Shown: positions 23,943-57,503 of the stretch, piece by piece
How the letters are laid out: the number at the start of each line of letters is the position of its first letter
How positions within the stretch are numbered: position 1 is the first letter of the stretch
Program-made: the position numbers and the translations under genes
Source: a virus
Reading direction: 5' to 3' (one strand)
DNA length: 64,000 bases
IMG/VR virus record: IMGVR_UViG_3300025849_000022
Coordinates: 24,309-88,308 of that record
Notes under the pieces: generated by a model
The model's database searches: none
Told to the model about the DNA's origin: nothing
The model's input: only the letters and a program-made list of their open reading frames with translations

Positions 23943-24694
23943 ATTTTCCTCAATAATAAAACATCATCGCTACCTTCTTTAGAAAGTGTAAATCTACCTT
24001 CGCTAAAATTGTTGACTACATATGATTTGCCAATTGCATCAGCAAATGCCAAGTCATCACTTAACATACTTCTAATAGGTTCTGACGAAATGTCTTCTAA
24101 TATATCTTTTTGACCAAAGTTGACTAATTCAAATTCAAATACTCTCTTGCCTCTTTGAAATTGTATTCTATCTTTATCTGTGTCTTTATCTAAATTAACG
24201 TTTGACATCAAACTGTCAATTAAAAAGTTTCCTAAGTTTTCTTTATACTCGCTTTCTTGTGCTTCAACTTTATTTTGTTGAAATGTTTTTTTATCTACAT
24301 ACATATCTGGGTCCACTATTACAAAACTTTTCCATGTATCTTCGTGTAGTTTAAAGTCTTCATCTGCATAGTATGGCTTTACAGTCCATGCTAGTTTACC
24401 AGACAAGTTCTCTACATCATGTAAAATTTTATCTATTTTTTCAAAGACTTGGTTGTCTCTTTTCATTTCTACAAACACCATGTAGTGTCCGTCATCGTTT
24501 GCGGCTGGGGAAGCCTCGCAATCTAATGTTTCATATGCACCTGACTCTACAAAGTTTGATAAGTCTTTAGCAGGAGCCAAATCGTCTACATAAAACCCCA
24601 CTACAATTACATCTTTATTATCACCTGTCTTTGGTGAAAATTCATCTAAACTGATTTTAGGAATAACTAGATCAACAAGGTCGTGATGTTTCAT
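23939..24694 (-). CDS. hypothetical phage protein
   Basis: 251-aa ORF coupled to neighbours. Confidence 0.75.
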   Translation of the reverse strand: MKHHDLVDLVIPKISLDEFSPKTGDNKDVIVVGFYVDDLAPAKDLSNFVESGAYETLDCEASPAANDDGHYMVFVEMKRDNQVFEKIDKILHDVENLSGKLAWTVKPYYADEDFKLHEDTWKSFVIVDPDMYVDKKTFQQNKVEAQESEYKENLGNFLIDSLMSNVNLDKDTDKDRIQFQRGKRVFEFELVNFGQKDILEDISSEPIRSMLSDDLAFADAIGKSYVVNNFSEGRFTLSKEGSDDVLLLRKI

Positions 24695-46221: not shown

Positions 46222-46540
46222 CGTCGTCTTTTTTATTATTAATTTCCTCTATGAGATCCCATATACTAGTATCTGAATTTAGTGTTTTAGAATCATATTC
46301 TTCTAAACCATAAGCCACTCTCAATGCTTTTTTATAGTAACCTGCGGCAGTACTGCAATATACAGCAAAACTTTCGTGAGTAATGTCTACGTCTAAGTCC
46401 ATACCTAAATGAACCATAAACTTAGTTAAGTCGTTTACTACATCATCAATTGTTTCATTAAACAATATATCATTGTTTATAGATTCTGCTTCTTTGAGTT
46501 TTTCTCTATAAACAGTCAAGTCAACTAGATTATCTTTCAT
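46214..46540 (-). CDS. hypothetical protein
   Basis: 108-aa coupled ORF. Confidence 0.65.
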   Translation of the reverse strand: MKDNLVDLTVYREKLKEAESINNDILFNETIDDVVNDLTKFMVHLGMDLDVDITHESFAVYCSTAAGYYKKALRVAYGLEEYDSKTLNSDTSIWDLIEEINNKKDDDE

Positions 46541-47750: not shown

Positions 47751-47824
47751 TGGTGGAGAATAAGAGAGTCGAACTCTTAACTGCTCCGTGCAAGGGAGCC
47801 GTGATCCCATTTCACCAATTCCCC
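47751..47824 (-). tRNA. tRNA-Ala(UGC)
   Basis: cloverleaf, anticodon TGC, G3:U70 pair, GTTCGA, encoded CCA. Confidence 0.93.
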
Positions 47825-50529: not shown

Positions 50530-50621
50530 TGGCGGAAAGGGAGGGATTCGAACCCTCGGTACGGTATAAGCCGTACGACAAGTTAGCAACCTGCTCCTTT
50601 AAACCACTCAGGCACCTTTCC
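50530..50621 (-). tRNA. tRNA-Ser(GCU)
   Basis: anticodon GCT, long variable arm, GGTTCGAATCC, G73, CCA. Confidence 0.93.
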
Positions 50622-52652: not shown

Positions 52653-53255
52653 TTAGAATTGTTTGCTTACGCCAAAAACAATACTGTCTTCGTCTTCTAA
52701 TAAAGAACCATCGTCAGCAATAAAACTGTGATATCCCAGTGAGCCTTTTAATCCTAATGGTAAGTCAAAGCCTTTTGACACTGACCAGTTATCACCTACT
52801 TCGTCCCACATACCATAAGAAACATCAACACCCATAAATGAGTATCCTAATTCCAAGTAGTCTGTGTAGTTATCTTGACCTAAGTAGTAGTCTACAGATA
52901 CGCCCATGATTTCTTTACTGATAAAGAACTCACTGCCGTCTAAGTCTGCGTCGCCATTATAACTGTAATCGATATAGCCGACCATCCAGTCACCGTTAGT
53001 CCAAGCGGCATACAAATCAGTTTCTAAATCTGATCCATCTGCATAGTCAACTTGACCAAGCCATGCACCGGCCATAAAACCACTGTCGCCAAACTGGTGT
53101 TGGTACTCTGCCCAAGCAGATACACCGCCATCTGTTTGTGATACGCCTCTAAAAATGTAGTCGCTGTCTGCCCCTACCTTTGCACCTGCGTATGCAGTTG
53201 TTGTTAATGTTGACAGTAAAAGTACTGCAAACACATTTTTAAATGTATTAATCAT
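52653..53255 (-). CDS. outer-membrane porin-like protein (Gcw_chp/TorF family)
   Basis: signal peptide, SDYIFRGVSQTD, ETDLY, C-terminal Phe (GVSKQF). Confidence 0.8.
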   Translation of the reverse strand: MINTFKNVFAVLLLSTLTTTAYAGAKVGADSDYIFRGVSQTDGGVSAWAEYQHQFGDSGFMAGAWLGQVDYADGSDLETDLYAAWTNGDWMVGYIDYSYNGDADLDGSEFFISKEIMGVSVDYYLGQDNYTDYLELGYSFMGVDVSYGMWDEVGDNWSVSKGFDLPLGLKGSLGYHSFIADDGSLLEDEDSIVFGVSKQF

Positions 53256-54335: not shown

Positions 54336-54364
54336 AAAAAGCACCCCTGTTACGAGGTGCTTTA
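54336..54364 (-). terminator. intrinsic terminator after the 54-aa ORF
   Basis: GCACCTC-GTAAC-AGGGGTGC plus U-tract. Confidence 0.75.
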
Positions 54365-54370
54365 TCAACC

Positions 54371-54535
54371 TTAAGGATAGAAAGGATTATCTGTTATATA
54401 ATCAGGTAACTCAGATTTTCTCTTAGAGTTAGTGACCATACGAGGAAAGAATTTTTCCTGCAAATCAGATTTTCTTTTTTCTCTTCTTAAGGCTAGTTTG
54501 ACTGCACGTTTAATTTGTGCGTTTTGATTAGTCAT
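54371..54535 (-). CDS. unannotated 54-aa basic protein downstream of tandem glutamine riboswitches
   Basis: AGGAGG RBS; MTNQNAQIKRAVKLALRREKRKSDLQEKFFPRMVTNSKRKSELPDYITDNPFYP. Confidence 0.8.
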   Translation of the reverse strand: MTNQNAQIKRAVKLALRREKRKSDLQEKFFPRMVTNSKRKSELPDYITDNPFYP

Positions 54536-54560
54536 ATCATCCTCCTAATTAAAGTTAGAT

Positions 54561-54622
54561 GCGTTCCTTCAGTTTTCACCTACTTCCGTCGTCGCTCTAC
54601 ATTTAGAGTGGCGATGAACGAG
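54561..54622 (-). ncRNA. glutamine-I (glnA-motif) riboswitch aptamer 2
   Basis: CGUUCA-P2-CGGAAGUA-GGU GAAA ACU-GAAGGAACGC. Confidence 0.85.
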
Positions 54623-54628
54623 TTCAGT

Positions 54629-54687
54629 GCGTTCCTTCGTCTTTTGACTACTTCCGTTCACTGCTACATTTAGAGTGAATGAACGAG
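54629..54687 (-). ncRNA. glutamine-I (glnA-motif) riboswitch aptamer 1
   Basis: CGUUCA-UUCAC..GUGAA-CGGAAGUA-GUC AAAA GAC-GAAGGAACGC. Confidence 0.85.
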
Positions 54688-54707
54688 TGTAACTTGCGTT
54701 ACATTAA

Positions 54708-54715
54708 TATTTATC
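54708..54715 (-). promoter_or_regulatory. T4-like late promoter motif GATAAATA (representative of many copies in the window)
   Basis: abuts the upstream terminator and precedes the riboswitch leader. Confidence 0.7.
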
Positions 54716-54743
54716 AAAAAAAAGCACTCCGAAGAGTGCTTTT
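54716..54743 (-). terminator. intrinsic terminator
   Basis: GCACTC-TTCG-GAGTGC plus T8. Confidence 0.85.
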
Positions 54744-54762: not shown

Positions 54763-55029
54763 TTAGACAAGGCCGTTAGCCATTGCTTTATACCCTGCGG
54801 CAATAACTGCTCTAGATGGAGTACCAAGTCTATAAACGTTTCTTGATCTTCCTTTAGTGTCAGTCACTGTGTTAAGGTAAATTGGGAAACCTTTGAATCT
54901 TAGTGATTGAATCACTGCCTGTGGGTTTCCTGTTCCGAAGAATGATTTCATCTGTGCAGATGATAAAGTTCTTCCTTCTTGCAAAGCATTTAATACTTTT
55001 GCTTCTTTAGTTAATGTTGCTGTAGTCAT
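54763..55029 (-). CDS. winged-helix DNA-binding protein-like
   Basis: AGGAGG RBS; KVLNALQEGRTLS...VIQSLRFKGFPIY...YRLGTPSR. Confidence 0.65.
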   Translation of the reverse strand: MTTATLTKEAKVLNALQEGRTLSSAQMKSFFGTGNPQAVIQSLRFKGFPIYLNTVTDTKGRSRNVYRLGTPSRAVIAAGYKAMANGLV

Positions 55030-55118
55030 ATGACCTCCTATTAGCATTATTAAAATTCTGTGCAATTATTTGCACATTATCTACTATTATACACAGATTA
55101 TACACAATGTCAACCTAT

Positions 55119-57248: not shown

Positions 57249-57325
57249 TGGTGGGCCCCACAGGACTTGAACCTGTACTCTGCCGATTATGAGTCGGATG
57301 CATTAACCAGTTATGCTAGAGGCCC
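57249..57325 (-). tRNA. tRNA with CAU anticodon, probably tRNA-Ile2 (lysidine type)
   Basis: cloverleaf, CTCATAA loop, GGGCC acceptor start resembling ileX, CCA. Confidence 0.85.
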
Positions 57326-57330
57326 TAGTT

Positions 57331-57406
57331 TGGCCTGCCCGGTAGGATTCGAACCTACAGTCTACGGCTTAGAAGGCCGTTGCATTATCCGTTATGCTAC
57401 GAGCAG
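57331..57406 (-). tRNA. tRNA-Arg(UCU)
   Basis: anticodon TCT, GGTTCGAATCC, CCA. Confidence 0.93.
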
Positions 57407-57416
57407 AATTTAAAAA

Positions 57417-57503
57417 TGGTACCTGAGGCCGGACTTGAACCGGCACGACCTTTCAGTCGAGGGATTTTAAGTCCCTTGAGTCTACCAATTCCTCCACTCA
57501 GGC
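57417..57503 (-). tRNA. tRNA-Leu(UAA)
   Basis: anticodon TAA, long variable arm, CCA. Confidence 0.93.

Follow-up and report, generated by a model that had tools for sequence, protein, structure and literature searches.

A tandem glutamine riboswitch upstream of a conserved small basic peptide in an uncultured phage and in marine gammaproteobacterial chromosomes

An uncultured marine giant phage represented by the IMG/VR record IMGVR_UViG_3300025849_000022 carries a compact genetic unit, in which two tandem type 1 glutamine riboswitch aptamers (the glnA motif, Rfam family RF01739) precede a gene for a basic peptide of 54 amino acids (aa). The unit lies on the minus strand at positions 54336-54743 of the 64,000-nucleotide (nt) stretch analyzed here (positions 24,309 to 88,308 of the record), hereafter referred to as the window. 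Comparison of this unit with its viral and bacterial relatives revealed several characteristic features: (i) both aptamers match the Rfam model over its full length, (ii) the peptide is conserved together with the upstream aptamers, (iii) a short helix over the ribosome-binding site (RBS) covaries between the leaders, and (iv) a near-identical unit is present on the chromosomes of a gammaproteobacterial family. The explanation that accounts best for these features comprises a late-type promoter box, a 5' hairpin, a tandem glutamine-ON switch, an anti-RBS helix, the peptide, and a host origin of the unit, and we assign it a probability of about 85%. The original prediction, made from the window sequence, of a phage-borne tandem glnA-motif riboswitch ahead of a small basic protein is supported by the Rfam scores, the conserved linkage, and purifying selection on the peptide gene.

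Tandem aptamers and the conserved peptide gene

The predicted layout consisted of an upstream terminator, the GATAAATA box, a GCAA hairpin, two structured copies of ~62 nt, AGGAGG, an open reading frame (ORF), and a closing terminator, in this order. All these components were found on the minus strand, as follows:

54720-54743, minus strand: intrinsic terminator of the upstream gene (terminator scan: 10-bp stem, TTCG loop, and T-run)
54708-54715, minus strand: GATAAATA box resembling a T4-type late promoter (sequence reading; putative promoter role)
54689-54702, minus strand: 5'-proximal hairpin GUAAC-GCAA-GUUAC with a GNRA loop (minimum free energy (MFE) and centroid folds)
54626-54687, minus strand: aptamer 1 of the type 1 glutamine riboswitch (glnA motif); its P2 hairpin is long (RF01739)
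54558-54622, minus strand: glutamine riboswitch aptamer 2, abutting the expression platform (RF01739)
54538-54561, minus strand: expression platform (MFE and centroid folds; covariation in relatives)
54541-54546, minus strand: AGGAGG Shine-Dalgarno (SD) sequence (sequence reading)
54371-54535, minus strand: gene for the 54-aa basic peptide, ATG at 54535 and end at 54371 (ORF list)
54338-54363, minus strand: closing intrinsic terminator (terminator scan: 10-bp stem followed by a T-run)

The terminator at 54720-54743 insulates the unit on its 5' side. The stem of the closing terminator begins 8 nt past the stop codon of the ORF, and the bacterial copies of the unit are likewise closed by a terminator; thus, the unit is monocistronic, and the peptide is its product. 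Four terminator-like sites were found in the region, compared with 0.4 expected from shuffled sequences.

An Infernal search of the whole window against Rfam bore out the assignment of both copies to the glnA model. Aptamer 1 scored 59.8 bits (E = 1.1e-10) and aptamer 2 scored 55.2 bits (E = 2e-9), both covering model positions 1-53 of 53, at a gathering score of 35 bits. The same two matches, and no further ones, were recovered from the whole 88-kb virus record. The core blocks CGUUCA, CGGAAGUA, and GAAGGAACGC are unchanged in both aptamers, and both are predicted to bind glutamine. The stems differ between the copies and are all paired, exactly as had been claimed (UUCAC/GUGAA versus UCG/CGA in P2 and GUC-AAAA-GAC versus GGU-GAAA-ACU in P3). 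The assignment of the G residue of the long-range pair and of its 3' C partner was adopted from Klahn et al. 2018 (PMC6212724).

The fold of the aptamers was further assessed using viral loci found via the peptide (33), viral loci listed via the aptamer core pattern (at least 120), and bacterial loci (7); in total, 150 viral and bacterial loci were compared. For P2, located between CGUUCA and CGGAAGUA, 98 of the 99 distinct inserts can form a stem of three or more base pairs; for P3, located between CGGAAGUA and GAAGGAACG, 104 of the 105 distinct inserts can form one of two or more. Both stems are built from many unrelated sequences across the loci. The variation in P2 and P3 is compensatory, and the three-stem junction is maintained; the P1 stem (CGUUC/GAACG) is uninformative, since it was fixed by the search pattern.

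One sequence in the aptamers is conserved beyond the requirements of the model. The long P2 hairpins of both window aptamers (54640-54680 and 54583-54615, minus strand) share an invariant apical sequence, ACUCUAAAUGUAG, that is identical base for base in distant phages and in the bacterial chromosomes (L160-L166). Elsewhere in the class, P2 is a short stem with a tetraloop, and the aptamer model gives no reason for the conservation of ACUCUAAAUGUAG.

The charge count predicted for the ORF product (13 lysine and arginine versus 6 aspartate and glutamate residues) is correct. Identical and related peptides are annotated as hypothetical proteins in public metagenomes, with the cluster of identical sequences present on 145 contigs. 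Relatives of the peptide were found in a collection of 5.8 billion proteins (eight proteins) and in IMG/VR, where 33 viral loci encode peptides with 33-100% identity. All these viral loci but one have one or two RF01739 aptamers ending 18-35 nt ahead of the start codon, the sole exception being a contig cut 84 nt upstream of the peptide gene. The pairing of aptamer and ORF, which the original prediction proposed to seek in viromes, is thus present at every peptide locus with enough upstream DNA.

The alignments of the family revealed invariant residues M1 and T2 and an invariant C-terminal pattern P-x-Y...NP-x-YP. The family signature includes an N-terminal MT(K)YQ, a basic helix, and the consensus C-terminus LPxYITDNPFYP, whereas the middle part is variable, with indels in whole codons and a family length of 45-56 aa. 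Pairwise ratios of nonsynonymous to synonymous substitution rates (dN/dS) range from 0.12 to 0.44 among close relatives, and 25 distinct DNA sequences were found for the last nine codons, with the differences confined almost entirely to third positions. Judged by these patterns of substitution, the 54-aa ORF is a genuine gene under purifying selection. The AlphaFold2 model obtained with the family alignment consists of a single long helix spanning residues 4-29, followed by a flexible tail; its mean predicted local distance difference test (pLDDT) score is 73.5.

The peptide had no match in Pfam and PHROGs, only a chance-level match (E = 0.23) in a profile search of PDB, and no match above 0.78 in the ESM Atlas. 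A full HMMER scan of 1.8 billion representatives returned three proteins only, all of them members of the peptide family. The family is absent from the cultured phage genomes of the isolate collection that we searched: tblastn with two family members gave no match even at E values up to 10. Nor did megablast of the 6-kb neighborhood find a match in the phage collection, and the blastn matches to the unit were confined to sequences resembling the terminator hairpin. Kinship with another riboswitch-linked family, ending in ...NILSxDPRLQxI, was considered and rejected at a profile comparison probability of 0.15%.

Expression platform and promoter

Aptamer 2 is separated from the start codon by 22 nt with no terminator in between, and thus control would be exerted at translation initiation. 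The tail CAUCU (54561-54557), located directly 3' of the P1 stem of aptamer 2, is complementary to GGAUG (54542-54538), which overlaps the SD sequence AGGAGG and ends 2 nt ahead of the AUG codon. RNAfold predicts the CAUCU/GGAUG helix in the MFE and centroid structures alike. For comparison between loci, the first five bases of the tail were matched to a 5-nt segment ending 1-5 nt before AUG, and, as a control, tails were exchanged between loci with different 5-mers. All five pairs of the anti-RBS helix can form in 73 of 102 distinct viral and bacterial leaders, compared with 26% after swapping of the partners. The covarying partners include CAUCU/AGAUG, CACCU/GGGUG, CACUU/GAGUG, CACUC/GAGUG, CAAUC/GAUUG, and CAUUU/GAAUG, mostly ending 2 nt ahead of AUG. 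Helix length relative to shuffled sequences was tried as an alternative test and abandoned, as it was barely discriminating (5.7 versus 4.8 bp); the position-specific partner swap was used instead.

The closest characterized counterpart is the leader of gifB in Synechocystis, which belongs to the same RF01739 class, occupies the 5' untranslated region of a small basic gene, and increases protein synthesis with glutamine (Klahn et al. 2018, PMC6212724). Citing crystal structures, these authors postulated that the C residue after P1 enters a long-range G-C pair when the ligand is bound, and that this pair melts a short helix otherwise blocking the RBS. In gifB, as postulated, and in the window, the tail base after P1 and its neighbors can pair with the RBS. 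The covariation of the anti-RBS helix fits this postulate as comparative support, and the window copy has the equivalent parts. By analogy, we infer a glutamine-ON translational switch. At low glutamine, the CAUCU tail of aptamer 2 would pair with GGAUG over the SD sequence, and translation would be blocked. At high glutamine, the C that follows GAACG and begins the tail would be drawn into the long-range G-C pair by the folded aptamer; the short blocking helix would then melt, and the peptide would be made.

The two leaders differ in several respects. The gifB leader is a single aptamer in a cyanobacterium under an NtcA-controlled promoter, whereas the window contains a tandem in a phage with proteobacterial-type genes behind a late-type box. 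The product of gifB is IF17, whereas the window peptide lacks both the DUF4278 domain and similarity to IF17.

The switch might have the opposite polarity or act at another level, such as a glutamine-OFF response, control of mRNA decay, or Rho-dependent termination, instead of RBS opening. The mode of action of type 1 glutamine riboswitches is called unclear even for gifB (PMC6212724), and other platforms exist: in the streamlined gammaproteobacterium G087, a terminator-like hairpin lies between a single glutamine aptamer and a downstream gene for a Gcw_chp protein. We consider such a scheme improbable for the window, because the 22-nt gap lacks a terminator, what is conserved and covaries is a helix covering the SD sequence and formed with the very base known to be captured in the bound state, and the sole tested member of the class is an ON switch (PMC6212724).

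Weinberg et al. 2010 (PMC2864571) described tandem glnA RNAs with the same motif in marine metagenomes and suggested that their response would be more switch-like; the genes associated with them were nitrogen metabolism genes and PMT1479, whereas the MTKYQ...DNPFYP family and its carriers were not described there. The tail of aptamer 1 is CACUG in the window and CAUCU in the bacterial copies and some phages, where it could serve as a second anti-SD sequence. Logical AND control through this second anti-SD sequence was considered as a general role of the tandem; since the tail of aptamer 1 in the window is not CAUCU, we do not propose it.

A three-codon mini-frame, AUG-NNA-UGA, overlaps the true start codon in the window (54530-54540, minus strand) and in the bacterial copies as well. 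It arises from the GAUG of the anti-RBS helix and the invariant Met-Thr start of the peptide, and may be incidental.

The box GATAAATA sits shortly upstream of several gene starts in the window. Nearly all phage copies of the unit have (G/T)ATAAATA 10-30 nt upstream of the leader, usually right after a terminator and often trailed by a GNRA-loop hairpin with compensatory changes in the stem. The hairpin is found in many phage relatives with C-G to U-A changes and GCAA or GAAA loops, and is missing in others; that of the window (54689-54702) is probably a 5' stabilizer of the transcript. Neither the ATAAATA box nor the GNRA hairpin was found in the bacterial chromosomal copies. The late promoter box of phage T4 is TATAAATA, and, by analogy, it is reasonable to expect late expression from the GATAAATA box.

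In three studies, RNA libraries yielded contigs that span the aptamers and the ORF, for example one of 288 nt at 54399-54686; this is weak evidence of transcription, as a DNA source is possible.

Chromosomal copies and origin of the phage unit

A profile of the peptide was compared with one genome per species of 185,579 prokaryotic species. The single match was found in a metagenome-assembled genome (MAG) of a marine gammaproteobacterium, at the end of a 70-kb contig and adjoining a tRNA gene, pssA, and ilvCHI, that is, ordinary chromosomal genes. We then searched for RF01739 in the 47 genomes (0.9-1.8 Mb, ~37% G+C) of the Genome Taxonomy Database (GTDB) family of this MAG. Tandem aptamers (62 and 55-57 bits) were identified in seven of them, in one case on a 1.6-Mb contig. 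Downstream of all seven tandems are GGAGAUGUUAUG and a gene for a peptide-family member of 46 aa, which runs into the contig end in one genome; wherever the contig continues, a terminator comes after the peptide gene. The MAG on which the family search was centered is an eighth genome, in which the peptide gene is cut at the contig end and the leader lies beyond view; the remainder of this MAG contains no other glutamine aptamers. The bacterial unit lies beside a 312-aa gene that resembles quinone oxidoreductase on reading of its sequence, no family search having been run. In an even sample of 150 genomes of the same class, the riboswitch was found in one other genome only, which is also very small.

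The bacterial unit (L160-L166) shares with the window the tandem arrangement, the CAUCU tail, GAUG beside the start codon, the M-T start, the (I/V)TDNPFYP ending, and the terminator. It differs in a 46-aa peptide without the middle insert of ~10 residues and in a short P2 stem of aptamer 2. In aptamer 1, the phage window and the bacterial chromosomes do not differ by a single base in P1, P2 (all 23 nt), and the core; differences are limited to the P3 loop and the 3' tail, whereas the upstream promoter regions are unrelated.

The phage record is 24% complete according to CheckV and has ~36% G+C. Its family B DNA polymerase is closest (41-49% identity) to those of jumbo phages such as Sinorhizobium phage Phosso, Agrobacterium Atu_ph07, and the Rak2-like group. 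Five tRNA genes are present in the window (47751-47824, 50530-50621, and 57249-57503, minus strand): Ala-TGC, Ser-GCT, and a Met-CAT/Arg-TCT/Leu-TAA cluster, the latter located 2.5 kb upstream of the riboswitch unit.

The original prediction presented the unit as one by which a phage makes a small effector. The phage-borne tandem switch stands, whereas the unit is not a phage invention, given the near-identical copy on the chromosomes of a gammaproteobacterial family. In view of the latter, the phage copy is probably derived from a host and rewired to a late promoter. The unit would be native to a streamlined marine gammaproteobacterial family, whose members are the probable hosts; a phage lineage most likely captured it and brought it under the control of a late promoter. 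Late in infection, the phage would then sense the nitrogen status of the host and make a small regulator of the host type.

According to a 2025 long-read study, RF01739 occurs inside structural variants of SAR86 MAGs (PMC12379486), and SAR86 is therefore a plausible candidate for the identity of the bacterial family.

Several points weigh against this scenario or parts of it. The unit is present in only seven or eight of the 47 genomes of the bacterial family. The identity of the host, the direction of transfer, and the late timing are inferred. The consensus KATAAATA is not enriched in the window (17 sites found versus 15.8 expected); thus, the promoter function rests on the position of the box and its conservation in relatives. 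The RNA-library contigs can hold DNA, and the contig of one relative runs through the promoter box. The folding energy of the whole leader is no better than that of shuffled sequences (z = -1.2), as is usual for aptamers with tertiary structure, and adds no independent support. Ligand binding and the ON polarity are predictions, as is any role of aptamer 1, whose tail is complementary to the SD sequence only in a subset of relatives, all bacterial copies included.

Possible role of the peptide and other glutamine switches

Our leading guess, a tentative one, is that the peptide inhibits glutamine synthetase (GS) or another nitrogen-assimilation protein and is thus a functional analogue of the cyanobacterial inactivating factors IF7 and IF17. 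In its specific form, this proposal holds that the peptide is a GS inactivating factor made at high glutamine, with which the phage would shut down host GS late in infection; we regard this as possible, at well below even odds. The logic of the circuit would be that of gifB, namely a type 1 glutamine riboswitch, ON at high glutamine, and a small basic protein (PMC6212724). Other viral glutamine riboswitches in our sample precede YRGV peptides that match PF14105 (DUF4278, IF17-like), and a few members of the present family have a YRGV-type motif at the aligned position.

The gene content of the bacterial family is circumstantial evidence for a target in nitrogen assimilation. Adenylylation by GlnE is the usual covalent control of GS in proteobacteria. 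GS was found in 46 of the 47 genomes and GlnE (PF03710) in none of them, with positive controls in E. coli, Caulobacter, and Corynebacterium; thus, the family appears to lack covalent adenylylation of GS, as do cyanobacteria. On the other hand, none of 23 peptide members matched DUF4278 (PF14105) at E values up to 10, the hhalign comparison with viral DUF4278 peptides gave a probability of 0.5%, and the peptide has no relative in PDB or PHROGs. Kinship with DUF4278 and IF17 had been suggested by a loose BLAST single linkage that joined the family to YRGV peptides, and was dropped after the hhalign result. Since the peptide is found in only seven or eight of the 47 genomes, it cannot be the general GS control of the family. 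PII and a GlnD-type enzyme (~860 aa) are each present in 42 of the 47 genomes, and thus other targets are equally open. The predicted complex of the bacterial peptide with two GS copies of the same genome scored 0.03, the mark being 0.32, a result that argues neither for nor against binding.

Most of the remaining probability would fall on another trans-acting role related to nitrogen. Stated more broadly, and held with slightly greater reserve than the GS proposal itself, the peptides would form a new family of glutamine-induced regulators of nitrogen assimilation, unrelated to DUF4278, with GS as the most attractive target, native to GlnE-less, streamlined marine Gammaproteobacteria and captured by their giant phages, in which a late promoter would drive them.

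The most strictly conserved part of the peptide is compatible with a different, cis-acting role. The ORF could encode an arrest peptide, whose C-terminal ...DNPFYP-stop would stall the ribosome, mask the terminator, and allow read-through into the downstream 168-aa, 87-aa, and Gcw_chp outer-membrane genes. The strictly conserved residues are indeed the last nine before the stop codon, with a proline at the end, the terminator stem begins 8 nt past the stop, and in the window, L028, and L021/L154 the same strand carries a Gcw_chp gene 0.5-1.4 kb further downstream. However, in the bacterial copies the gene past the terminator is either the convergent 312-aa gene or a tRNA gene on the other strand, so that there is no target for read-through. 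The N-terminal helix, the M-T start, and the length of 45-56 aa are also kept, which a tunnel-arrest motif would not need, and no sequence match to known arrest peptides was found. An arrest function is therefore very unlikely, and a trans-acting regulator of nitrogen assimilation is preferred.

The genes around the phage unit also recur near other glutamine switches. Upstream of the unit, at 54763-55065 on the minus strand, lies a 100-aa winged-helix gene (HTH_39-like, phrog_4973), which adjoins the riboswitch unit in the related phage contigs L004, L014, and L028 as well; relatives with ~49% identity occur near riboswitch units of another peptide family (L126 and L137). The Gcw_chp (PF09694) outer-membrane gene of the window (52653-53255, minus strand) is located ~1.1 kb downstream of the unit on the same strand, and the linkage (0.5-1.4 kb) was observed in two other phage lineages (L028:3654-4253 and L021:3778-4386). 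The Gcw_chp gene of G087 that directly follows a single aptamer and a terminator-like hairpin (L189:838-1431, minus strand) encodes a protein 37% identical to that of the phage, and Gcw_chp may be a glutamine-regulated porin-like protein. The G087 genome (0.9 Mb) contains two further tandem pairs of glutamine aptamers (L190 and L192; C1, ~161.9 kb and ~170.2 kb). One of them precedes a different short basic ORF, of 45 aa from the first in-frame AUG, although a start two codons downstream (~43 aa) is more likely by the CAUCU/GGAGAUG helix. The other pair has no ORF within 80 nt of the aptamer.

Short peptides appear to be a common target of viral glutamine aptamers. Among at least 120 viral contigs with the aptamer core (L036-L155), nearly every aptamer is followed, 18-35 nt further on, by an ORF of 28-65 aa that is mostly basic. 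These small ORFs form about ten recurring families besides singletons; some have DUF4278, and most have no Pfam match. Examples are 64-aa peptides with NGxGTSGY, 50-aa peptides ending in NILSxDPRLQxI, W/C-containing helices of 28-38 aa, and YRGV-repeat DUF4278 peptides.

Buchholz et al. 2022 (PMC9004378) described glutamine riboswitches of the same Rfam class in the OM43 phage Melnitz, the SAR11 phage Mosig, and pelagimyophage contigs. These T4-like phages have streamlined marine heterotrophs as hosts. The Melnitz host has no riboswitch, and the switch was assigned to an adjacent transfer-messenger RNA (tmRNA) (PMC9004378). In the segment 46398-46567 of the Melnitz genome (MZ577097; L159:999-1168), we found the aptamer at 46398-46446 (52.8 bits), followed by GGGGAGAGUG-UU-AUG and an unannotated basic ORF of 32 aa, whose leader has an anti-RBS helix of the same type, CACUU/GAGUG. 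The GenBank record annotates an opposite-strand ORF of 33 aa at this site. The small ORF is more likely than the tmRNA to be the regulated gene. Melnitz differs from the window in having a single aptamer and an ORF of a different peptide family, whereas the window has a tandem and a polymerase of a jumbo-phage-like lineage. Moreover, in contrast to the Melnitz host, which lacks a riboswitch (PMC9004378), the candidate host family in the present case carries the switch together with the peptide.

The type 2 glutamine riboswitch (Downstream-peptide motif, RF01704) with its yfr6-type ORFs is likewise a glutamine sensor placed before a very short conserved ORF, and the yfr6-type ORFs of marine picocyanobacteria were first mistaken for non-coding RNA. 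However, this class has another aptamer architecture, IF17-like DUF4278 peptides, and a distribution restricted to picocyanobacteria (PMC6212724).

Thus, tandem copies (PMC2864571), copies in phages of marine heterotrophs (PMC9004378), and the control of small basic proteins in cyanobacteria (PMC6212724) have already been published, and among genomes the glutamine riboswitch class was reported only in cyanobacteria (PMC6212724). As far as we found, the peptide family, the tandem switch with the peptide on gammaproteobacterial chromosomes, and comparative evidence for the anti-RBS helix have not been described.

The tandem glutamine sensor of uncultured marine Gammaproteobacteria, and of the phages by which they seem to be infected, would gate a conserved peptide unrelated to those known from cyanobacteria. 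Through the shared unit, an uncultured giant phage is linked by sequence to a candidate host family, and the 102 leaders provide comparative evidence for an anti-RBS mechanism that was merely postulated for this riboswitch class before. The genes regulated by phage glutamine riboswitches appear to encode small peptides that are usually missed by annotation. The peptide described here is short enough to be synthesized, and its target could reveal how nitrogen assimilation is controlled in abundant GlnE-less ocean heterotrophs and their viruses. If the peptide is a nitrogen regulator, the unit would be the first circuit of a riboswitch and an inactivating factor outside cyanobacteria, and its phage copy would be an auxiliary gene with a regulatory instead of an enzymatic product, resetting the nitrogen flow of the host according to the glutamine level.

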